This document shows positions 4,499 through 36,389 of a stretch of 64,000 nucleotides of DNA, one piece after another. The position numbers and the translations under genes were made by a program. Under the pieces are notes generated by a model, which made no database searches, had not been told where the DNA came from, and was given only the letters and a program-made list of their open reading frames with translations. The DNA is from a virus: IMG/VR virus record IMGVR_UViG_3300035169_000077, positions 34,688 through 98,687 of that record; one strand, given 5' to 3'. The number at the start of each line of letters is the position of its first letter. Position 1 is the stretch's first letter.

Positions 4499-4935
4499 GG
4501 CAGGCAGCACCGGATCCGGCACCGCTCGCCTACCTGGTGGAGCGGCTCTCGTACCGGCCCGGCTGGACGTTCAAGCTCGCGGACATCGACCGGGGGCAGG
4601 GCAGCGAGGGGCTGACCCTGATCATCACCACGCGCGGGTACGACAGCTACCACCCCGGTCGCGGCGAGAACTACCGGGTCAATCACTACATGCCAGTGCC
4701 GCCGGCCGCGTTCGATCACCGATCCTGGCAGCGATGGCTATTCGACCAGCTCCTCCTTGTCGAGCGGCACGAGGCCATGGAGTTCTTCCGCGTGCACGAC
4801 TCCCCGGGCAGCGAGCATGTCGTCCGCCCCTATGCGCCGTCGCATGGGCCGGGAAATGACCCGTACATCGTCCGGGAGATCGGCACCGGCATGGACCAGC
4901 GGACGTCGTTCCGGGGCGACGTCAACCCCCCGTGA
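4495..4935 (+). CDS. Hypothetical phage protein
   Basis: ATGA overlap with the upstream gene. Confidence 0.7.
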   Translation: MRQAAPDPAPLAYLVERLSYRPGWTFKLADIDRGQGSEGLTLIITTRGYDSYHPGRGENYRVNHYMPVPPAAFDHRSWQRWLFDQLLLVERHEAMEFFRVHDSPGSEHVVRPYAPSHGPGNDPYIVREIGTGMDQRTSFRGDVNPP

Positions 4936-5177
4936 CCATCACCCTGGCCCGCCGGGTAGCAGGCCCCGAGGACCTGGAACTACCGGGCGACTACTGCGGG
5001 CCGCTCCCTGAGCTTGAGGGCCCTGACCTCACCCCGTCCGGCAGGACCGCCGTGTGGCTGGTGGCCCCGGACGGGTCACCGGTACGGCTCGCCTCCCCGC
5101 CGTGGGAGTTCACCGAGGCTGAAGACGGGTCGCTGGAGATCACCGTGGCGGCCGGAACGCCCTCCCCGGCAGCCTGA
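4932..5177 (+). CDS. Hypothetical protein
   Basis: GTGA overlap; end of rightward run. Confidence 0.55.
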   Translation: MTITLARRVAGPEDLELPGDYCGPLPELEGPDLTPSGRTAVWLVAPDGSPVRLASPPWEFTEAEDGSLEITVAAGTPSPAA

Positions 5178-5448
5178 GCCAGGACGATCTCGCGCCCGCA
5201 GCAGATGGCGTGATCTTGCAGCGGAAGCCGGCCGGAGCGCGTCGACCACCAGCCGCGCGGATGAGTGCCCGCCGTGAACTCGATCCCGCACGCCGCCACC
5301 CGCACTTCCCCGCGAAAGCCGCCGTCGAAGCGGCGCACGATCAGGTGAGCAGATGTCGGCAACGCGGGGCCACCCGGATACATGGGGCTGAGGCCCATCG
5401 CCCACAGGTTGGGATCGTCGCTCATCCCGCCAGCCTAGGGCTACCTCG

Positions 5449-5555
5449 CAGGCCGGGCGGGACTTGAACGCCGCTCCTCAGGGCCTGGGCCGCCTCCGCT
5501 AGCGCGCTATCGCTCGGGCGCGGTTACCTGCGCTCTGCCGTTGAGCTACCGGCCT
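5449..5555 (-). ncRNA. tRNA-like RNA with expanded anticodon domain
   Basis: Acceptor AGGCCGG/CCGGCCT, TA, D arm GCTC-AACGGCA-GAGC, T loop TTCAAGT; ~44 nt between CAGG and CCTG instead of a 7-nt loop; no CCA. Confidence 0.75.
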
Positions 5556-5578
5556 GAGCCGACCCTACCCGGCCGGGG

Positions 5579-5992
5579 CTAGTCGACTAGCTTTCTTGAG
5601 GCCTCGCGTCGCCGCCATTCGCAGCGCCGCAGCGTGTGCTTGCGGAACAGCCGGTCCTCCCAGATGGCCCGCGCCCAGCGCCGCTCTCCCTTAACAGGCG
5701 ATTCAGGCACGGCGACCACGTCCGTCCCGCACGACTCGCACCGGCTCGGCCCTTCCCTCTCGCCAGTGCGGATGAGGAACGGCGCGGACTCGGCCAGCGA
5801 CGCCAGGTCCTCGGCGACCAGCGGCCCCTTGACGGGGTCAGCCTCCAGTTGCCGGAGCACGGCGGCGTAGTCCACGGCCGGGATGATCCCCTGCTCCAGG
5901 CCAGAGCGCAGGAACACGCCTCCTGGCGGGGCGTCCGGGTCCACGACGATCTTGAAGCCACTGAAAGCCCAGCCCTCATCCCCGGCGGTCAC
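5579..5992 (-). CDS. Hypothetical protein with CxxC
   Basis: ORF; TACGTT 6 nt upstream of GTG. Confidence 0.6.
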   Translation of the reverse strand: MTAGDEGWAFSGFKIVVDPDAPPGGVFLRSGLEQGIIPAVDYAAVLRQLEADPVKGPLVAEDLASLAESAPFLIRTGEREGPSRCESCGTDVVAVPESPVKGERRWARAIWEDRLFRKHTLRRCEWRRREASRKLVD

Positions 5993-6023: not shown

Positions 6024-7406
6024 TTGACCTCACTCGTTTACGTCACCATCACGGGCCAGTTCCTCGGCGGCGATGAGACGCCCCTCTCCGGAACGGTGAC
6101 CTTCACCGCAAGCCAGGCTGTCTACTCGGCAGGCCAGGAGATCGTCACCCCTGATGTCCCGGTCGCCGCGCAGATCACGGACGGCGTCCTCCTGGCCGAG
6201 TCGGGCGGCGCGCTGCAGCTGCTCGCGACGGACCAGAGCGGCCTGACGTTCCTGACCTTGAGCGGGTTCTTCTACTGGACCGTGCGGGTAGTGGCCGGCG
6301 GAGTCACTGAGCCGTCATGGTCGTTCGGCCTGCCGTCGTCGCCATCGAGCGTCGACTTGTTCGCCCTCGCGAACAGGCCCTTCACCGCAGGCGGCGTCAC
6401 CTCGGTCACGGCAGCGGACACCTCGGTTGTCATCGGGGGAACGGGCACGGCCCCGACGGTGCGGACGGGCACGCTGGACGTGATCGCCACCCAGCATGCG
6501 CCGGCGGGTAACTGGTCGAACAACAGCCACAAGATCACGTCGCTGGCAAACGGGGCCTCCGCGCAGGACGCGGCGGCGTTCGGGCAGGTCCCCACCTCAG
6601 CGGGGAGCATCGGCGGCCTCCTCGCCGCAAGCAACCTCTCCGACGTCGCCAATGCCGGCACGGCCCGGACCAACCTGGGCCTGGGCAGCGCGGCGACTCA
6701 GGCTAGCAGCGCGTTCGACGCGGCCGGGGCGGCCTCCGCAGTGCTGGCGCTTGCCGCGCTGCGCGCCAATAACCTGTCGGACCTGGCCAGCGCGCCGACG
6801 GCCCGGACCAACCTGGGCCTCGGCGGGGCGGCCGTGATCGGCGTCCCGGTCTCCATCGCCAACGGCGGCACCGGGCAGACTGCCCAGCAGGCGGCACTCG
6901 ACGCGCTCGCGGGAGCGGTCACCACGGCCCAGTTCCTGCGGGGCAACGGCACGCACGTCGTACTGGGCGCGATCCAGGCCACCGACGTCCCCACCCTCAA
7001 CCAGAGCACCACGGGGACGGCCGCCAACTTCACCGGCGGGGCGACCGTGCCCGCCTATGTGGCCCCGCACGTGGCGACGCTCACCGACGCGGCGACGGTC
7101 GCGGTCAACGCGGCCCTCGGCAACGACTACCGGCTCCTCACCACGAGCGGGGTAGGCGCATCGCGGACAATCGGCGCACCCTCTAGCCCGGTCGACGGGC
7201 AGGCCATCACGATCGACGTCCAGCAGGCATCCAGCGGGGGCCCGTACACGGTCACCTGGGCATCAGGGGCGGGCGGCTACTCGTTCGGCACCGACGGCGC
7301 GCCGACGCTGAGCACCGGTGCTAACGCGGTCGACACGATCGGCTTCCGCTACCACGCCGGCCTCGGCAAGTGGATATGCCTCGGGTGGAAATTGGGATTC
7401 GCGTGA
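6024..7406 (+). CDS. Tail fibre / minor tail protein
   Basis: GGAGG RBS; Gly/Ala/Thr-rich; two NLSD(V/L)A...ARTNLGLG fibre repeats; ANGGTG motif. Confidence 0.8.
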   Translation: MTSLVYVTITGQFLGGDETPLSGTVTFTASQAVYSAGQEIVTPDVPVAAQITDGVLLAESGGALQLLATDQSGLTFLTLSGFFYWTVRVVAGGVTEPSWSFGLPSSPSSVDLFALANRPFTAGGVTSVTAADTSVVIGGTGTAPTVRTGTLDVIATQHAPAGNWSNNSHKITSLANGASAQDAAAFGQVPTSAGSIGGLLAASNLSDVANAGTARTNLGLGSAATQASSAFDAAGAASAVLALAALRANNLSDLASAPTARTNLGLGGAAVIGVPVSIANGGTGQTAQQAALDALAGAVTTAQFLRGNGTHVVLGAIQATDVPTLNQSTTGTAANFTGGATVPAYVAPHVATLTDAATVAVNAALGNDYRLLTTSGVGASRTIGAPSSPVDGQAITIDVQQASSGGPYTVTWASGAGGYSFGTDGAPTLSTGANAVDTIGFRYHAGLGKWICLGWKLGFA

Positions 7407-8104
7407 CGATCAGCTTCCCCGCGACCAGCGGCGACCACAGCGTCACGGCGGAGGCGAATCCGCTGGTGATCGCGCCGCCGGCGAATGTCGCCAACGGCGA
7501 CTTGCTCGTCGCATGGGTCATCGCCAGGACCGGGATCAGCAGCGCGCCGGGCAGCTGGACGGCGCTGCAGTCGTTCACCACCAACGGGACGTTCGCGGCG
7601 TACTCGCTGAAGGTCCCGACCGCGTCGGCGCTGCCCGCTAACTGGACGTGGACCCCGGCGTCGGCGCGGGCGAGCGTGATCATCCAGCGGGTGACCGGCA
7701 CCGACCTCACCGCCTCCGTCACCGTCGGCGGGACCTGCGGGGCGGGCACTGACGCCGGGTTCGGGACGACGTACTCGTCATTCCTGCCGATGCAGCTGCC
7801 CGGCATCACGCCACCGGACGCGTGGGCCGCCTGCGTCGGGACGTTCTTCACCGGGGACGCCAACACTCCCTCGGCGGACCTCGTGCCGGGCGGGACGCTG
7901 CTGGCGACGGCGACGACCACGAGCGCCGGGGCTGGCCGGTCGTCGTCGGGGATCTACGGCGCTGTCGCGGCCGGGCCGACCGGCACGATCGTGTGCGCGA
8001 ACGACTGGCCGGGCGCGCCCGGCGGCCAGGACGGCATCCTGCTCGGCTTCACCGCCGTGCGCGCCCCCGTGAAGAGCGGGCTGCTGATGGCGGGGGTCAT
8101 ATGA
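7403..8104 (+). CDS. Minor tail / fibre-associated beta-rich protein
   Basis: Coupled at both ends; NGDLLVAWV and GSW motifs typical of actinophage minor tail proteins. Confidence 0.6.
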   Translation: MTISFPATSGDHSVTAEANPLVIAPPANVANGDLLVAWVIARTGISSAPGSWTALQSFTTNGTFAAYSLKVPTASALPANWTWTPASARASVIIQRVTGTDLTASVTVGGTCGAGTDAGFGTTYSSFLPMQLPGITPPDAWAACVGTFFTGDANTPSADLVPGGTLLATATTTSAGAGRSSSGIYGAVAAGPTGTIVCANDWPGAPGGQDGILLGFTAVRAPVKSGLLMAGVI

Positions 8105-10641
8105 CGAGCCTGTCGTACGTCACGATCACTGGCCAGTTCACCGGGGGCGGCAACACGCCCCTGTCGGGCAGCGTGACCTTCACGCCGAGTCAGGCTGTCT
8201 ACGCCGGGGGCGTCCCCGTCGTCACTCCCGGGGTGCCGATTACCGCCCAGGTGATCGCCGGGCAGCTGTTGTCCGAGCACGGGGGGCCGCTCCGGCTCCT
8301 GGCGACCGACAACGACGGCCTGACCTTCCTGACCCTGACGGGCTTTTTCTGGTGGTCGGTTGAGGCGGTCATCGGCGGCGTCACTCAGCCGGCGTGGTCT
8401 TTCGGCTTGCCTTCCAGCCCGACAAGCGTCGACTTGTTCGCCCTCGCGAACACGCCCTTCGGTGGAGGCGGCGGCGGCAACCTCCCGCCCGCGATCATCA
8501 CCTCCAGCGGCCCCCTTGGCCCTGAGTCAACGGCGATCCTCGCCGCCCCCGGCCTGACCGTCTCGCTGCCCGACGCGACCGCGGCACCGGGCAGGGCGAT
8601 CACGGTCAAGCTCGACTCGCCGTTCACCACCGGGACGGTCGAGACGATCAACGGGCAGCTCATCGACGGCTACCCCTCGTACCAGATGGCCGCCCGGTAC
8701 CAGTGGTGCACGCTCCAGTCGGACGGGACCAACTGGCAGGTCATCAGCGCCAAGCCCGGCGGCCTCCTGAGCATCCCCGTGCCAGTGCTGCCGGCCGGGA
8801 CCGCCAACGCGCCGTACAGCGCCCAGCTCACGGCCAGCGGCGGGTGGCCCGGGTACACGTGGAGCGTCAAGTCAGGGAGCCTGCCCGACGGCGTGACCCT
8901 GTCCACCTCAGGCGCCCTCTCAGGCACCCCGACAGTGGCGACGACCAGCGGCTTTACCGTCCAGGTGACCGACTCGATCGGCTCCATCGCGACGATCGCC
9001 CTGACTATCACGGTCGGCGGGGGCATCGTCCTCGTCCAGCAGGGCGCCGTGATTAACGCCTCGAACGGGGCCTCGGCGGCTCCCGTCTTCCTCAACGCCA
9101 CCGCGGCCGGGAACCTGCTCATCGCCCATGTCGGCGGCAACGGCTCCGGGGCCATCACCACGACCGCTTCCGGCTGGGTTGTCGTCGGCGCCGGCGGCCA
9201 TGCGATCGCCTACAAGGAGAACTGCGGGGCCGGCGAGACGCCTCCCGTCTTCTCTCGCGGCAGCACCAGCGACATGTGGGCGTACCTGGAGGAGTGGACC
9301 GGGGCCGCCACCTCAGGCGCGGCAGACCAGTCCGTGTCATCCTCCGCCGGGTCGTCGGCATGGACAGCGGTATTCCCGGCGCTGAGCACCGTGCCGGGGG
9401 AACTGCTGGCCTGCGCGGGCTACTGGAACGGCAGCAACACGGGCGGCAGCGTCGCGCTGACCAGCTTCCTCGACAACACCGGCGACACGATCACCGGCAC
9501 GTTCCTCCAGGGCGGGAATAGCTTCGGCCAGTACTTCGCCGGGGTCTCCGGGGTCGCCGGCCCGACCGGCAGCACGCATGACCAGGTCGGGATGACCCTC
9601 AGTGTCTTCGCGGGCGGCGACGGCACCCTGGTCTCGTTCCAGCCCGGCAACCAGGGGCCGCCCGGGAACCCCGTCGTCACCACCGCGTCCCCGCTGCCAT
9701 CAGCGTCCACGCTGCAGCCGTACACGGTGATCCTCGCCGCAGAAGACGGGGTCCCGCCCTACACGTGGTCGATCGCGTCCGGCACGCTCCCGGCAGGCCT
9801 CGCGCTCTCCGCGGACGGCGTCATCTCCGGCTCCCCCGTGACCGCCGCCGTGTACTCGTTCACCGTCCGGGTCACCGACAGCATCAGCGACTCCGGCACC
9901 ATGCCGCTGGGCCTCACGGTCGCGCAGACTCCCACCCCGACGTTCGTGACGTCGGCCTTCACGGAGGCCACCGGAAGCCGCAGCCAGCCGTATCCCGGCA
10001 TAGCCGCCATCACCGGGCCCACTCAGGACCCGACCGTCAACAACAACGTGTGGTCGCCGGTGACCGGGACGGCGTCCGAGCTATTCGTGGTCGATCCCAC
10101 CCGCTTCTGGGTAGTCGCCAACATGCCACCCGGGAACACTCAGGTGCTGGCATTCCAGAGCAATGACCTGCGGTTCGGCGAGTTGCCGCTCAGCAGCTTC
10201 ACTAAGGTCGTCAGCTCGTTCAGCGAGGAAATGAACCCGACTCCCGGCACGCAAGCCTGGGCGGCCTATGACATCTGGCTGAATAACTGGAACAACGAGA
10301 TCATGATCCATCATGATCTCGCCAGGTTCAATCCTTACGACTCCACGCCCCTGGCCAGGGGAATCTCGTTCGGCGGGAGCAACGGCGTGCCAGTCCTGGC
10401 CTGGGACCTGCACCTTTACGGCACCAGTGAATATGTCTGGCAGCCAGCGAATAACGCGTTCAATATCCAGTCGGGCAGCGTTGACATTTTGCAAATGCTT
10501 CAGTGGATGATTGACAATGCGTTCCTGCCGGCGGTTAACACCTTCACGGCAGTCGGCTACGGCTGGGAGATGTGCAGCACCGGCGGCCTTGATGAATTCT
10601 TCCAGGTGACCGCTTTCACCCTTGACGCCGAGTACGGCTAA
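8101..10641 (+). CDS. Receptor-binding/tail protein with two putative Ig (He_PIG-like) domains and a C-terminal GH12-like domain
   Basis: N-terminal ~120 aa paralogous to the 6024 protein; two 'YTWS..SG.LP.G..LS..G..SG.P' repeats; NNNVW, AAYDIWL, EIMI, GWE motifs. Confidence 0.8.
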   Translation: MTSLSYVTITGQFTGGGNTPLSGSVTFTPSQAVYAGGVPVVTPGVPITAQVIAGQLLSEHGGPLRLLATDNDGLTFLTLTGFFWWSVEAVIGGVTQPAWSFGLPSSPTSVDLFALANTPFGGGGGGNLPPAIITSSGPLGPESTAILAAPGLTVSLPDATAAPGRAITVKLDSPFTTGTVETINGQLIDGYPSYQMAARYQWCTLQSDGTNWQVISAKPGGLLSIPVPVLPAGTANAPYSAQLTASGGWPGYTWSVKSGSLPDGVTLSTSGALSGTPTVATTSGFTVQVTDSIGSIATIALTITVGGGIVLVQQGAVINASNGASAAPVFLNATAAGNLLIAHVGGNGSGAITTTASGWVVVGAGGHAIAYKENCGAGETPPVFSRGSTSDMWAYLEEWTGAATSGAADQSVSSSAGSSAWTAVFPALSTVPGELLACAGYWNGSNTGGSVALTSFLDNTGDTITGTFLQGGNSFGQYFAGVSGVAGPTGSTHDQVGMTLSVFAGGDGTLVSFQPGNQGPPGNPVVTTASPLPSASTLQPYTVILAAEDGVPPYTWSIASGTLPAGLALSADGVISGSPVTAAVYSFTVRVTDSISDSGTMPLGLTVAQTPTPTFVTSAFTEATGSRSQPYPGIAAITGPTQDPTVNNNVWSPVTGTASELFVVDPTRFWVVANMPPGNTQVLAFQSNDLRFGELPLSSFTKVVSSFSEEMNPTPGTQAWAAYDIWLNNWNNEIMIHHDLARFNPYDSTPLARGISFGGSNGVPVLAWDLHLYGTSEYVWQPANNAFNIQSGSVDILQMLQWMIDNAFLPAVNTFTAVGYGWEMCSTGGLDEFFQVTAFTLDAEYG

Positions 10642-10759
10642 GCGGCCCGCTCCTCCCCCATCACCTGACCCCCCTCCCGCAAGTTACGGCGCCCTTAGCG
10701 CAACCACGGCCGCGCACCCGCGGCACGCCTGGCCAATTTCAACGAGAAGGAGAACCGTC

Positions 10760-11050
10760 ATGACCACTCCCGCCCCCGAGCCAACTTCCGCCCACGAGGG
10801 CTTCCTCGGCCACGTCCGCGACTGGTTCGAGCGCGACATCGCCCCCGAGATCGCCGTCGTGAAGGCAGACCTGGAGAAGGTCAAGGCCCTCGCCCCCCAG
10901 CTGTCCAGCGTGGCGACCACGCTTGAGACGCTGGTGAAGGCCCTCGCGCCCAGTGCGGCCCCGGAAGTCGCCACGCTCGTCGAAGACGCGGAGAAGGCCG
11001 CCGCGATCATCGCGCGGATCGCGGCGGAGCTGGGCGCGGCCGGCCTGTAG
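10760..11050 (+). CDS. Hypothetical helical protein
   Basis: AGAAGGAG RBS; followed by terminator. Confidence 0.75.
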   Translation: MTTPAPEPTSAHEGFLGHVRDWFERDIAPEIAVVKADLEKVKALAPQLSSVATTLETLVKALAPSAAPEVATLVEDAEKAAAIIARIAAELGAAGL

Positions 11051-11309: not shown

Positions 11310-12677
11310 TTATCCTCGCTCGGCCAGCCAGCGGAGCGCCCCGGCCTCATCCCCGAACTCCCCGGCATCCTGTGCCTCCAGGGCCTCGGCGAGGATGGGC
11401 TTGAACGACGGCCCCGGCTTCATCCCCGCCGCGATCAGGTGGTCCCCGGTCAGCAGTCCCTTCGCGGGGCGTTCCTCAACCTTCAGGTCCCGGCCCAGGT
11501 CGAACCACGCGCCTGCCGTGCTCCACGCGTCCGGGTCGCCGCGCCCCTTCGCGTCGGCCGCGCACACAAGCGCGAGTTCGGTCAGGGTCGCGGGCTCCAG
11601 CCTGCGCACCAGCCGCCGCACCGCCGGCTTCGTCGGCCGCCCGAAGCAGTTCATGTGCTCCCGGATCAGCGGGACGATGCGGGCGATGATGCCCTCAGGG
11701 CAGCCGATCGACCGGAGGAACGCCGTCGCAGGCTCTACGCCGGCCTCCGCGTGGCCATGGGAGGTGATCCGGCCCTCGGTGAGCTGGCTGTGAGTGACCT
11801 TGCCGACGTCGTGCAAGAGCGCGGCGAAGACGATGACCAGCCGGTCTGTTCCGGTCAGGCCCGCCTCATCGGCAAGCCGGGCAGCCTGGTCAGCGGCTAG
11901 CCCGGCGTGGGTCCACACGTCGCCCTCCGGGTGCCATTCGGGGTCCTGCTCGACGCCGTGCATGTACGCGAGTTCGGGGTAGCGCGCGTCCCACCAGGTG
12001 TCATGCAGGACCGCCAGCGCCCGGCTGACGTGCGTGCCGCGCGTGCCGATCTTCTCCCACTCGCCCCAGATGCGCTCGGCCGGCAGTTCCCGGTACGAGC
12101 CCAGGAGATCCCGGCACAAGATGGCCGTCTCGGGGACCATGGTGAAGCCGAACCGGGCCGCGAACTGGACGCCGCGCAGGACGCGCAGCGGGTCCTCGCT
12201 GAACGCGTCCGACGTGTGGCGCAGGATCCCGGCCCGGATGTCGGCCAGGCCCCCGTGAGGGTCGATCAGCCCCCCCGTTGCCGGGTCGAGCATGATCGCG
12301 TTCATCGTGAAGTCCCGCCGGGCGCTTGCCTGGGCGAAGCTGATGTCCATGTCCGGCGAGACCTCGAAGCCCCGGTGGCCCGCGCTGACCTTCCGCTCGC
12401 GGCGGGGGACGTTGATGTCCAGGTCGGTGTCCCCGGCGCGGACCTTCAGCACGCCGTAGCTCTTGCCGACCTCATCCACGCGGCCTGCGCGGCTGAGGGC
12501 TTCCGTCAGCGCGGCGAACGTCAGGCCGTAGACCTCAACGTCAACGTCCTTGCTCTCGGCCCCGCCCATGAGGGCATCACGCACGAAGCCGCCTACGAGC
12601 AGCGGGTGGCCGCCAGCTTGGCGGATCGCGGCCAGCACTCGCTCAACGTCCGGCGACAGGCGGGGCAGCGTGATCAC
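11310..12677 (-). CDS. cca: Class II tRNA nucleotidyltransferase (CCA-adding enzyme family) with HD domain
   Basis: VGGFVRD, DVD, RRDFTMNA, EDPLRVLR, HPEGDVWTH...LLHDVGK, C-terminal GDHLI..G.KPGP; GTGA overlap with upstream gene. Confidence 0.9.
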   Translation of the reverse strand: MITLPRLSPDVERVLAAIRQAGGHPLLVGGFVRDALMGGAESKDVDVEVYGLTFAALTEALSRAGRVDEVGKSYGVLKVRAGDTDLDINVPRRERKVSAGHRGFEVSPDMDISFAQASARRDFTMNAIMLDPATGGLIDPHGGLADIRAGILRHTSDAFSEDPLRVLRGVQFAARFGFTMVPETAILCRDLLGSYRELPAERIWGEWEKIGTRGTHVSRALAVLHDTWWDARYPELAYMHGVEQDPEWHPEGDVWTHAGLAADQAARLADEAGLTGTDRLVIVFAALLHDVGKVTHSQLTEGRITSHGHAEAGVEPATAFLRSIGCPEGIIARIVPLIREHMNCFGRPTKPAVRRLVRRLEPATLTELALVCAADAKGRGDPDAWSTAGAWFDLGRDLKVEERPAKGLLTGDHLIAAGMKPGPSFKPILAEALEAQDAGEFGDEAGALRWLAERG

Positions 12678-13387
12678 GGGCGGTCCCAGTAGGCGCGGCG
12701 GACTTCTTGCAGCCACGCCTCGGCGGCAGCCTCGTCCGGGCGATCCGGGAGCACGCCGGGCTTGTCGAATGCCTCCTCGGCGCGGGCGAGCACGTCCCTC
12801 GCCACCTCTACGCCCCGCGTGGCGACGTCCTCGCCGAACTCACGGCACGCCGCAGCCTGCGCAAGGCTCAGGCGCACGCTCAGCCGGCCGCTGACGTGCA
12901 GTGCCGTCCCCTGGTGGATCAGCCTCCACAGATGGCGGGCGTGCTTCTCGGTACGCTTCCTGGTGTCGGCCGAGAACGACCCGTCACCCCGGTTCTCCAG
13001 CCGGCGGAACTGCTGGGTGGCATACCCGAGGTAGGCGTTCCGGACCGCCGGCCGCGACAGGAGCGACTTGCGGATATCTACCAGCAGGTAACCCTCGCGC
13101 GTCGCCGTCTCGTACCTGTCAAGCCACAGCAGCTCCGCGACGGTCGGATTGCACTTCAGGAGGAGCGCGGCCAGCTTTCCCGCCTCGTGGTACGTCGCGT
13201 CCGGCTTGGTGCTGACCCGGCTCGCGGCCTTCCCGAGCGGCGGGTGCAGCCCGTGGAACGCCACGGTGGGCGCGGCGTAGCAGCCGATCCGGTCCACGTC
13301 GGAGTCCTCGGTCGCCAGCCCGTATGCCGTTGAGCCGTTGATGCCCGCGAGGAGCACGTTCGGCGGCGGCTTCATCTCAGCGTCCAC
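12674..13387 (-). CDS. Pol-beta superfamily nucleotidyltransferase (PF10127 / RlaP-like)
   Basis: GSTAYGLATEDSDVD, CNPTVAELLW, AYLGYA..Q, KHARHLWRL. Confidence 0.85.
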   Translation of the reverse strand: MDAEMKPPPNVLLAGINGSTAYGLATEDSDVDRIGCYAAPTVAFHGLHPPLGKAASRVSTKPDATYHEAGKLAALLLKCNPTVAELLWLDRYETATREGYLLVDIRKSLLSRPAVRNAYLGYATQQFRRLENRGDGSFSADTRKRTEKHARHLWRLIHQGTALHVSGRLSVRLSLAQAAACREFGEDVATRGVEVARDVLARAEEAFDKPGVLPDRPDEAAAEAWLQEVRRAYWDRP

Positions 13388-13569
13388 GCTTTCCCCTCTT
13401 CCGTCGCGCCCCGTCCCGCTTCCTGGCATGGTGCCCGGGTCGCGGGGCGGGGCGCACCTCGTTTTAGCCAGGGGCCTAACAGCGGCACTCCCGGTCGGCT
13501 AGTCTCCTCCTGCGTGAGTTGAATGCTCCCGGCCGCGTCCCACGCCACGGCCGGGCGCCTACCAGGCTT

Positions 13570-19200: not shown

Positions 19201-19210
19201 GGCGAATCCG

Positions 19211-19284
19211 TGGCGCGAGCCGGATTTGAACCGGCGACCTACGGGTTATGAGCCCGCCGAGCTACCGAGCTGCTCCATCGCGCT
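19211..19284 (-). tRNA. tRNA-fMet (CAT), CCA not encoded
   Basis: Full cloverleaf; A1:C72 mismatch; GGG/CCC anticodon stem; loop CTCATAA; 3' end A-CGG. Confidence 0.93.
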
Positions 19285-33800: not shown

Positions 33801-36389
33801 ACGATGCGGGCGCCCCCGGCGGGAACCTCGATGGGGTCCGGCGCGGGATCGTACGTCTCCCGGAGCACGTCATCGTCGATCGGGTAGTACTCGCCCCGGA
33901 CGCCCCTGATCAGCCACTGGCTGTCCTTGACGCCAACCCAGGTGGAGTGGAGCCTGTCGTAGACCTCGGCGGTGATGCCCGGGTCGCGCTGCAGGGCCTC
34001 CGGGCTGGCGAAGCGGAACAGGCCCTGCGTGAATGCCTGGACCTCCTCGAAGTTGGAGCCGGTCCACCGGATCGCGCTGACGGTGACGGGCTTCTTCCGG
34101 TACAGGCCGCTGGCGCGGTCAGGGGCGATCGTTTCCCCGGTATCAGTTCCGGTCATGAGGGATTCCTTCGGTTCGGGATGGGGGGCTAGCGCTTGAGGAG
34201 GCCGATGACCACTGCGATGCCCACGACCACCAGCAGTACGAAAACCGTGACGGCCGCGCCGATCCACAGCGGCGACACCACCCACCACCACGACCAGCCG
34301 ATCTTGTGCAGCAGCTTGAGCGCGACGAACAGGATGGTCAGCAGGCCGGCGAAGCCGGTCCCGCCGGATGCCGAGGCGCTTGCGCTCGCGCCCTGGTTAC
34401 GTGCCATGAGGGATTCCTTTCGCTTGGACCGGGGGGTGGCCCCGTGCGCGTCCCGCCCGGGGAAGAGAGGGACGCGCACGAGGGGATCGGGGGGCTAGCT
34501 GGCCGCGTCGGGCATCTCGCGGAGGACCCGGGCGACGCGCTCCCGGATGGCCTCCAGCGCGTCAGCGCCGCCGATGGTGTCGCGTACCGTGGCGATGTTC
34601 AGGACCACCTTCAGCTCGGCCTCAAGGCCTGCCACCTGCGCGGCGAGGTCCGGGCCTGCCTCCGCGCGGTGCCCGTCCATCCCGGCGTACTGCCACTGCC
34701 CGGGGGCGTAGAGGGCCACGGGCTTCAGCAGCGGGGCCGTCGCGGTCATGTCCGGGGTGCCGATGACCAGCGTGCCTTCAGTGCAGCCGATGCCGTCCGC
34801 CTCCCACTGCTGGTCCGGGCCGGTGAAGGTGGTCACGGTCACCGTGGGCGGTCCGGCGCGGCGTGCCGCGACCGCGTCCGCCGCATCCCGGAAGCCGACC
34901 TGTACCTCCGGCGGAAGCGCGTCGAACGGCAGGCCCGCGCCGAACGTGACGTTCTCGCCGACGATGAAGGCCCCGAAGGCGGCGTAGGCGACCTCGCCCA
35001 GGGGAGTTTCCTCGGTCATTGACTGGTCCTCTCGGTTTCGCCGGTCCCGGCACCGTGCCGGGCCTGGGTGTCGTGCTGTCCTGCGGGCGGGGCCGTCCCG
35101 GCTTTCTGGGCGCGGACCAGCTCGGCGTGGGCGGCGGCCTTCGCCCGGAAGGCGGCCATGTCGCCGAGGGTCTCCGGGTCGACGGTGGCCTCTGCCGGGG
35201 GCGCGGCATTCCAGGGCTGCAATGACGAGATCGGCCGCCACCCTTGCCCCCACATGGCCGTGACGTACTCGGCGGCGAACGGCTCGCAGTCCGCGGCATC
35301 CGCGCCGGAGGCCACCGCGGCGTCCCGTTCGCGGAGACGGCGGGCGAGGGAATCGACGGCGCGGCGCTTGGCGCGGTCCTCTGCGGCGGTCACGATGCCC
35401 TCCTGGCTGCGGTGACGGTCGCGCAGGTGATGAGGTGATCGGGCTTCGGGGCGCGGCAGCATGGGCACGCGGGGCGCTCCGGCTTCCGGTACTTCTGGCC
35501 GGCGACGGCGTGGGCTGCCTTGCACCCGGGGCACGCGTCCTCCCCGGCCCGCAGGTGCTGGCGGTAGCCGTAGTCGCTGCCGCACGCCTCGCCCGGCCCG
35601 GTGAGGCCGGTGGCGATGCTGCGGGTGCCGCCCTTCCCGTTGCCGTCCGGGAGCAGCCCGAGGGCGGTCATCTCGGCCTCGAACGCGAGGACCGTCGCTG
35701 ACGCCCGGTCGCAGGGGCGGGGGGCGGTCACCGGGTACCTCCCGGGGCCAGCCCGAGGAGAGCCGCGACCTCCGCCGTCCGCCCCTGCTGCTCGGCGAGC
35801 CTCCCCGTGCACGTAGGGCACCACGACAGGCCCTCAGGCAGGTCGTGCGGGGCTTCCCGGATGATCGCCTGCGACTCGACGTGCGGGCCTGTGGACTGGC
35901 CGCACAGCGTCTCCGTGGCACGCTGGCCTTTGGGTCCTTCCTCGCGGACCACGTGGACGCGGCGGACCTGCCCGGCTCGCCTGCCGTCCTGGACGTAGCC
36001 ACGCTGGCAGGTGCGGACAGGGGCGCTCACCGGGCACCTCCCGGCACCAGCACGGGACGGGGCACGGAAAGCTCCCGGGCCTTGCGGACGATCGCGTCAC
36101 GGAGGGCACGGGACTTCGCGCCGAGGAGCCTGCGGGCGCGGTCCCCCCGCTTGCGGCGGGAAAGCCACCACAGGACCGCCGCGATGACCACGGCGATGGC
36201 CTCCCCGGCCGCGTTCCACCCCGCGCCGGCGGCGAGGTCAGCCATGGCCGCGACGGCGTTGGCCGCAGCGGCCCCGGCCCACCATGACCCGGCGGGGACT
36301 GGCCGCAGGGCGCGGACGAGGGCGAGGACGAGCGCCTCCGCGCCCGTCTCGGCGGCGGCCGTCGCGATCATGACGACAGGGCCGGTCAC
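30878..36389 (-). other. Array of small hypothetical phage genes
   Basis: Coupled ORFs, including 31416-31757, coiled-coil 31998-32705, 33185-34156 (YRKKPV motif), membrane proteins 34186-34407 and 36027-36389. Confidence 0.7.

Follow-up and report, generated by a model that had tools for sequence, protein, structure and literature searches.

Is a phage gene with tRNA-like acceptor, D and T arms, but with a long hairpin in place of its anticodon loop, a working RNA or the remains of one? The question is raised by a 107-nt element in a 64,000-nt stretch of viral DNA, hereafter the window, which covers positions 34688 to 98687 in an IMG/VR virus record 98.7 kb long (GC ~70%). The record encodes an endolysin with a peptidoglycan-binding domain, tail-fibre-like genes and a tyrosine integrase, together with many small minus-strand genes and one canonical tRNA (Met). 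Given the endolysin, tail-fibre-like, integrase and tRNA-Met content, the virus looks like a temperate phage of a bacterium, and its host is probably an actinobacterium. A large protein from the structural region, compared with the phage collection for clues to the host, had no match there. A third-position GC frame plot showed the element to fill a 153-nt non-coding gap (5426-5578) flanked by two genes, P0001 and P0002, on the same minus strand. The features on which the analysis turns are as follows.

5449..5555, minus strand: the whole tRNA-shaped element, 107 nt from A1 to the discriminator G, parsed as AGGCCGG / TA / GCTC-AACGGCA-GAGC / G / CAGG / 44 nt / CCTG / AGGA / GCGG(C)G-TTCAAGT-CCCGC / CCGGCCT / G; defined by sequence and an insert-tolerant covariance model
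5549..5555, minus strand: 5' strand of the acceptor stem, AGGCCGG, pairing 7/7 with 5450-5456
5532..5546, minus strand: D arm, GCTC-AACGGCA-GAGC, with equivalents of A14, G18, G19 and A21; from sequence and model alignment
5527..5530, minus strand: CAGG, 5' strand of a 4-bp stem at the anticodon-stem position, pairing with CCTG at 5479-5482
5483..5526, minus strand: 44-nt insert in place of the anticodon loop; from a constrained fold
5479..5482, minus strand: CCTG, 3' strand of the 4-bp stem; from sequence and model alignment
5475..5478, minus strand: variable-loop equivalent, AGGA, 4 nt; from sequence and model alignment
5457..5474, minus strand: T arm, GCGG(C)G-TTCAAGT-CCCGC, with one bulged C; from sequence and model alignment
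5449..5456, minus strand: 3' strand of the acceptor stem, CCGGCCT, and discriminator G; no CCA is encoded
5562..5567, minus strand: -10-like hexamer TAGGGT with a 6-nt spacer to A1 (5555); a putative promoter box, read from sequence
5579..5992, minus strand: P0001, the upstream gene (137 aa), supported by the GC3 frame plot and carrying conserved CxxC...H...C motifs
4991..5425, minus strand: P0002, the downstream open reading frame (144 aa), with a frame plot consistent with coding
11310..12716, minus strand: CCA-adding-type nucleotidyltransferase with an HD domain (Pfam PolyA_pol head, 2e-16; HD, 4e-10)
12674..13429, minus strand: RlaP-family RNA-repair nucleotidyltransferase (Pfam RlaP, 3.5e-18)
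19210..19284 (with its upstream box, to 19296), minus strand: tRNA-Met (CAT), the phage's only canonical tRNA, used as a comparator for layout

The tRNA character of the element is plain in its arms. The acceptor stem forms seven Watson-Crick pairs out of seven and the D stem four out of four, and U8 and A9 follow the 5' acceptor strand. Several canonical features of the tRNA family RF00005 are thus present, namely the 7-bp acceptor stem, the 4-bp D stem with a G18 G19 loop and a T loop of the form TTCRANT. The uninterrupted 5-bp T stem of that family is not found, as the T stem of the element reaches five pairs only with one C bulged between positions 52 and 53. The standard 15-48 Levitt pair is also absent (in our numbering, position 15 and the last variable base are both A). 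Nor is there a canonical anticodon arm, with its 5-bp stem, 7-nt loop, U33, anticodon and purine 37, and no alternative could be drawn. In its place stand the 4-bp stem, with a U-C mismatch next to it, and the 44-nt insert, which includes CGCGC and GCGCG and is predicted to fold through the helices CCGC/GCGG, CCG/CGG and AGCG/CGCT to a 6-nt loop, AUAGCG. Because this long hairpin stands where the anticodon loop should be, the element is unable to decode. The original prediction, made from the sequence alone, had described just such an RNA, and its parse agreed with ours base for base, including the insert of about 44 nt, the single bulged C, the missing CCA, the TAGGGT box 6 nt upstream (at 5567-5562) and the inability to decode.

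We then asked how far the fold itself can be trusted. A cloverleaf with the insert hairpin has a predicted energy of -43.0 kcal/mol against a minimum of -44.2 kcal/mol, a gap of 1.2 kcal/mol. The minimum-free-energy fold of the whole molecule is not unusually stable (z = +1.06), and the insert hairpin does not exceed shuffled sequences in stability, 40% of them folding equally well. Since the arms score well and the hairpin resembles shuffles, we regard the tRNA-likeness as solid and the hairpin as unproven. The insert has no second copy in the phage genome. As a separate observation, the bulged-C T arm of the element was found again in four other IMG/VR contigs. In one of these (L151:2490-2566), a T arm of GCGGCG-TTCRART-CCCGC belongs to a phage tRNA-Met called by ARAGORN that is otherwise canonical. 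At L154:1076-1163, a bulged-C T arm sits in an 88-nt tRNA-like gene with a four-base 'anticodon' (gacg), inside a tRNA array.

Detection of the element depended on the tool. A covariance model, R1, built from tRNA-like RNAs of the phiC31 family (described below) and tolerant of a large insert in the anticodon loop, scored it at 38.0 bits (E ~6e-7), with every arm aligned as first drawn. For comparison, the tRNA-Met of the window scored 37.7 bits, and 33 real tRNAs of a related prophage scored 17-45 bits. ARAGORN at default settings made no call. Rfam made none either, at its gathering threshold or at E<=10 locally, so an existing family, which the original prediction had said would speak against it, did not emerge; the YrlA model, for one, reached 10.8 bits (E 2.4) over the acceptor and D arm only, against a gathering score of 69. 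When ARAGORN was run at a relaxed threshold with introns allowed, it proposed a tRNA-Gly(ACC) with a 37-nt intron, amid several overlapping junk calls. A tmRNA reading was rejected, its sole support being a junk permuted call at relaxed threshold. Elsewhere in the phage genome we found no tRNA relics.

The stop codon of P0001 lies 23 nt ahead of the element and the ATG of P0002 lies 23 nt past it. Neither protein belongs to a known family, as Pfam and PHROG searches returned no match for either; an AlphaFold model of P0001 had a mean pLDDT of 43.7 and was left unused. Genes of the P0001 family elsewhere lie near integrases or regulators, so P0001 offers no link to RNA. The 3' end of P0002 overlaps a plus-strand open reading frame (4932-5177) that is likewise coding-like in GC3, and for this reason the low-complexity C terminus of P0002 may be antisense read-through and not real protein. 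An attP or att-scar reading of the locus was also discarded, there being no meaningful flanking duplication and the integrase lying 11 kb distant.

Upstream of the element, the sequence is arranged as at a working tRNA gene. TANNNT is the main promoter element in Actinobacteria, with transcription starting 6-8 nt downstream. In the phage genome, TANNNT occurs at only 8.1e-4 per position, and this rarity makes its placement before the element hardly a matter of chance (~0.003, allowing spacers of 5-8 nt); the hexamer TAGGGT itself occurs just twice in the 98.7-kb genome, counting both strands. The tRNA-Met gene has the same layout of TANNNT, 6 nt and A(+1): its TAAGCT (19296-19291), which immediately follows the upstream gene's stop codon, is separated by a 6-nt spacer from A+1 at 19284. 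CCA is encoded by neither of these two tRNA-shaped genes. A scan at the element found no consensus sigma-70 promoter and no intrinsic terminator. Taken with the tRNA-Met arrangement, the box suggests that transcription starts at base 1 of the element.

A precedent for the overall design came from the phiC31 family. Nine Streptomyces phages of this family carry, between gp13 and gp14, a tRNA-like RNA that is non-decoding and unpermuted; the phiC31 copy lies at L013:1498-1585 (NC_001978, 31424-31511), with matching sites in the other family records (L015-L022). The RNA has perfect acceptor, D and T arms, and its anticodon loop is replaced by a 4-bp stem and a tetraloop-capped hairpin. Its 24-nt insert consists of AAYCCGGR, a hairpin of 4-5 bp capped by GAAA, GCAA, GTAA or UUCG, and GCAC. 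Compensatory double changes occur at 7 pairs, and the 4-bp stem itself appears in compensatory variants (CCGC/GCGG, CCAC/GTGG, CCCC/GGGG and TCCC/GGGA). On this sequence evidence, selection maintains the phiC31-family RNA as a structured tRNA mimic that does not decode, and in design it matches the element. Lilbooboo is the only phage whose record annotates it, as a tRNA-Gly; the records of phiC31, phiBT1 and five other family members examined leave it without annotation, and ARAGORN reports it as tRNA-Gly(ccc). Full-text literature searches turned up no description of the phiC31 RNA. Standard tRNA finders miss or mislabel such genes, the Lilbooboo annotation being an example.

The element and the phiC31-family RNA share the normal tRNA order, a 4-bp stem around a structured insert, and a setting in temperate, high-GC actinophages without Ro60 (a TROVE gene was absent from the five phiC31-family genomes checked). 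The covariance model aligns the CAGG of the element to the covarying 4-bp stem of the family and the conserved AAYCCG of the family with UAACCG in the element. The two differ in the length of the insert (44 nt against 24 nt), which matches in sequence only over AACCG, in the T stem, which is unbulged in the phiC31 family, and in their neighbour genes, which are unrelated; neither P0001 nor P0002 is similar to phiC31 gp14. Because the phiC31-based model scores the element within the 17-45 bits of ordinary tRNAs and no higher, a specific kinship with the phiC31 family is not shown.

Most known examples of non-decoding tRNA mimics are the tRNA-like domains of bacterial Y RNAs, the partners of Ro60. 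Like the element, the Y RNA YrlA (RF02553) is non-decoding and combines the three tRNA-like arms (acceptor, D and T) with a long, imperfectly paired stem in the anticodon-arm position. YrlA RNAs mimic these three arms and undergo modification by DusA and TruB, and the YrlA of M. smegmatis is cut by RNase P and receives CCA, with an open acceptor end like that of the element (Chen et al. 2014, PMC4201824). We compared the element, half by half, with a set of tRNA-shaped RNAs. Three actinophage YrlA-like modules came top (34, 33 and 30), the phiC31 family scored 25-28 and the 35 ordinary tRNAs scored 24 or less. Against pieces of the Rfam YrlA consensus, in which the D and T stem sequences of the tRNA module hardly vary, the halves of the element ranked second of 127 and the top 25 contained no ordinary tRNA; part of this 127-member set had been chosen for a similar D arm, which inflates the scores of those members and not that of the element. 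By these comparisons of sequence, the arms of the element are closer to YrlA-type tRNA modules than to any of the 35 ordinary tRNAs. It is in T-stem (GCGGG/CCCGC), acceptor-stem (GGCCGG/CCGGCC) and D-arm sequence that the actinophage YrlA-like RNAs come nearer to it than ordinary tRNAs do.

The wiring of the two molecules is opposite. YrlA runs from T arm through a closed acceptor hairpin to D arm and has its free ends in the long stem, whereas the element has the normal tRNA order, free acceptor ends and a long stem closed by a loop. It looks as an RNase P-processed YrlA would, were the far end of the long stem closed by a loop. Deinococcus radiodurans Yrn1 is like the element, and unlike YrlA, in its order of D arm, stem-loop and T arm (PMC4201824). 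In Yrn1, however, the acceptor stem is replaced by a Ro-binding stem, and a short stem-loop of 5 bp with a 6-nt loop lies in the middle; the element has a tRNA-like acceptor stem, and its middle arm is the long one. Normally wired YrlA-like RNAs were not described in any text returned by our full-text literature searches. The Rsr-recognition motif GNCGAA(N0-1)G (PMC4201824) is absent from the element, which has only the near-matches CCCGAG and GCGGAGG, and no Ro60/TROVE gene was matched in the 98.7-kb phage record. The original suggestion of a Y-RNA-like molecule is, with that of a mimic, among the better supported: the arms are nearest to YrlA-type modules, but the likeness fails for the Ro60 gene, the Rsr motif and the Rfam YrlA score.

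Relatives of the element itself proved elusive. Exact and degenerate pattern scans of IMG/VR returned no homologue, looser scans returned more than 118 tRNA-shaped RNAs, all of them with unrelated inserts, and a comparison of inserts found none similar to that of the element in ~100 of the IMG/VR tRNA-shaped RNAs. A blastn search of 50,697 phage records gave only weak matches, which led to phiC31 and to Gordonia phage VanLee. Collecting homologues and testing their covariation, as had been proposed, therefore yielded neither conservation nor covariation evidence for the element. P0001 has five protein homologues, with P0004-P0006 at 71-91% identity. The P0001-homologue loci examined, one in a genome and seven in metagenomes, are all distant (40-54% identity), and the element is in none of them; the seven metagenome loci hold no tRNA-like element at all.

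The genome locus among these (L002) and the VanLee region both carry YrlA-like RNAs. L002 is a prophage in an Actinomycetota MAG contig (CAVRGA010000002, 5786439-5798786, here L002:1-12348) with a P0001 homologue and an integrase. It has a Ro60 gene (TROVE and vWA_Ro60) at 17-1651 and an array of 33 tRNA genes at 6788-10444. At 10755-10931 lies a permuted YrlA-like RNA whose acceptor loop is enlarged by a 72-nt insert; at 51.4 bits, this RNA falls short of the gathering score of 69. Relative to the acceptor of the element, that of the L002 RNA has one pair flipped from G-C to C-G, a compensatory change. VanLee (NC_073474, ~65329-65557; L014:1467-1695) has two permuted YrlA-like RNAs upstream of an annotated Ro-like protein, the first with an acceptor sequence identical to that of the element. 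In the same VanLee region, the string GGTTACTTC is repeated three times. The tRNA-Arg(tct) annotated there reaches no more than 26.9 bits and coincides in part with the second YrlA-like RNA; the low score and the overlap make this annotation doubtful, and it may be a mis-call.

What, then, is the element? The reading we lean towards, with moderate confidence, is that of a putative working tRNA mimic that does not decode, and we infer that it derives from a tRNA or from the tRNA module of a Y-RNA-type molecule. We favour a working gene over a relic on three grounds: the tRNA-Met-like layout, the YrlA-like arms and the phage's possession of its own CCA-adding/HD enzyme and RlaP. The element keeps the parts that tRNA-handling proteins would see, namely the acceptor stem and the D/T elbow, and offers a long imperfect hairpin in place of the anticodon loop. 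In the working we envisage, the TAGGGT box would drive transcription from A1, and with a start at A1 RNase P would not be needed. The 3' end would be trimmed to the discriminator G, and CCA would be added by the CCA-adding/HD enzyme of the phage or by that of the host. The folded L-shape could then be bound by proteins that recognize tRNA ends or elbows, with the hairpin as a platform for a partner protein, and the RNA could serve as scaffold or decoy without interfering in decoding. It is the processing precedent of YrlA (PMC4201824) that leads us to propose a stable, CCA-tailed, non-decoding mimic.

The two enzymes are candidate partners by co-occurrence only: the CCA-adding/HD enzyme could possibly mature the CCA-less element, and RlaP may likewise be linked to it. 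The mimic-or-decoy idea of the original prediction is thus retained as to design, for which the YrlA-like arms, the phiC31-family precedent and the tRNA-Met-like layout all speak, and its functional part stays conditional, as a mimic function is suggested here by sequence features. One of its variants, in which the RNA would lure anticodon nucleases, is unlikely, since the element offers them no anticodon loop to cleave.

The most serious rival is that the element is a decayed tRNA or YrlA-type module, in which a 44-nt insertion or rearrangement cost the anticodon loop, a 1-nt insertion marred the T stem, and the non-functional remainder has not yet eroded. Much of the above can be read this way. 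The T-stem bulge and the absent Levitt pair are lesions of the expected kind, ARAGORN and Rfam leave the element uncalled, the stability of the insert hairpin is at chance level and homologues were not found. Moreover, the distant L002, with the same neighbour gene family, has a 33-tRNA array and a YrlA-like RNA nearby, so the lineage of the element may have lost an array. The orientation of that array relative to the neighbour gene is different, however, and the element shows little other sign of wear: besides the insert and the one bulged base, all stem pairs and conserved loop bases of the three arms are intact at 70% GC. Its arms are nearer the mimic/YrlA consensus than those of working tRNAs are, which counts against decay because a decaying gene should drift from consensus. 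The -10-like box is retained at the exact spacing of a working tRNA, the genome is without other tRNA relics, and its bulged-C T arm also occurs in an otherwise canonical phage tRNA-Met. On balance, we judge a relic somewhat unlikely.

Two further readings would make the RNA either a mark in a longer message or an unfinished tRNA. As cis-acting punctuation in a P0001-element-P0002 transcript, its borders would be cut by RNase P and 3' enzymes, splitting the transcript into two messages, setting their stability and releasing an RNA with no role of its own. tRNA-like structures and operon-embedded tRNAs are indeed processed by RNase P, and the element is co-oriented with both neighbours, 23 nt from each, and no terminator-like site separates them. 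But RNase P requires only an acceptor/T-arm minihelix, so the retention of the D arm and elbow bases speaks against this role, for which a -10-like box set to start at base 1 is also unneeded; the distant P0001-family loci lack any such element, and we consider punctuation very unlikely. The idea of a precursor that is cut and ligated into a decoding tRNA, likewise part of the original prediction, is hardly credible. It can draw on the relaxed ARAGORN call of tRNA-Gly(ACC) with a 37-nt intron, but the same run yields overlapping junk calls, and position 33 of the proposed loop is A instead of U, with an anticodon that would begin with an unmodified A. Without the insert, no 7-nt loop with U33 results, no bulge-helix-bulge motif was seen by eye, and a group I intron would need far more than 44 nt; to our knowledge, bacteria also lack the splicing endonuclease.

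The mimic reading can be taken further, to a specific proposal that we put forward as speculation and hold to be quite unlikely. The element would be a counterpart of the Y-RNA tRNA mimics, normally wired and independent of Ro60, whose partners are the phage's own CCA-adding/HD enzyme and RlaP; it would be transcribed from base 1 by its promoter and receive a phage-added CCA. It could act as a harmless decoy or docking platform, diverting host toxins that attack tRNA acceptor ends, such as the MenT/AbiEii-type nucleotidyltransferases of Actinobacteria, or as an organizer of host tRNA repair. If so, the element would be the RNA component of a phage counter-defence module. Short of that, the element and the phiC31-family RNA appear to build the mimic idea in reverse, with normal wiring and in temperate actinophages without a Ro60 gene. 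If expressed, they would make tRNA mimicry in phages broader than the Ro60-Y RNA pair; such mimicry may be tied to the tRNA-end repair enzymes carried by these phages, a matter of interest for the way phages deal with host defences directed at tRNA.

Insert-bearing molecules of this general shape are not confined to the examples above. The IMG/VR pattern scan recovered more than 118 phage tRNA-shaped RNAs in which the acceptor stem has 7 bp and the D arm and T loop are 46-76 nt apart (L023-L140 and L144-L150), and a tRNA-shaped design with this spacing is thus common in phages. In one sub-family among them, the anticodon loop is CTTATAC and a long extra arm ends in loops of the AGATWRG type; other recurring sub-families include the L096/L149 pair and L046/L111.
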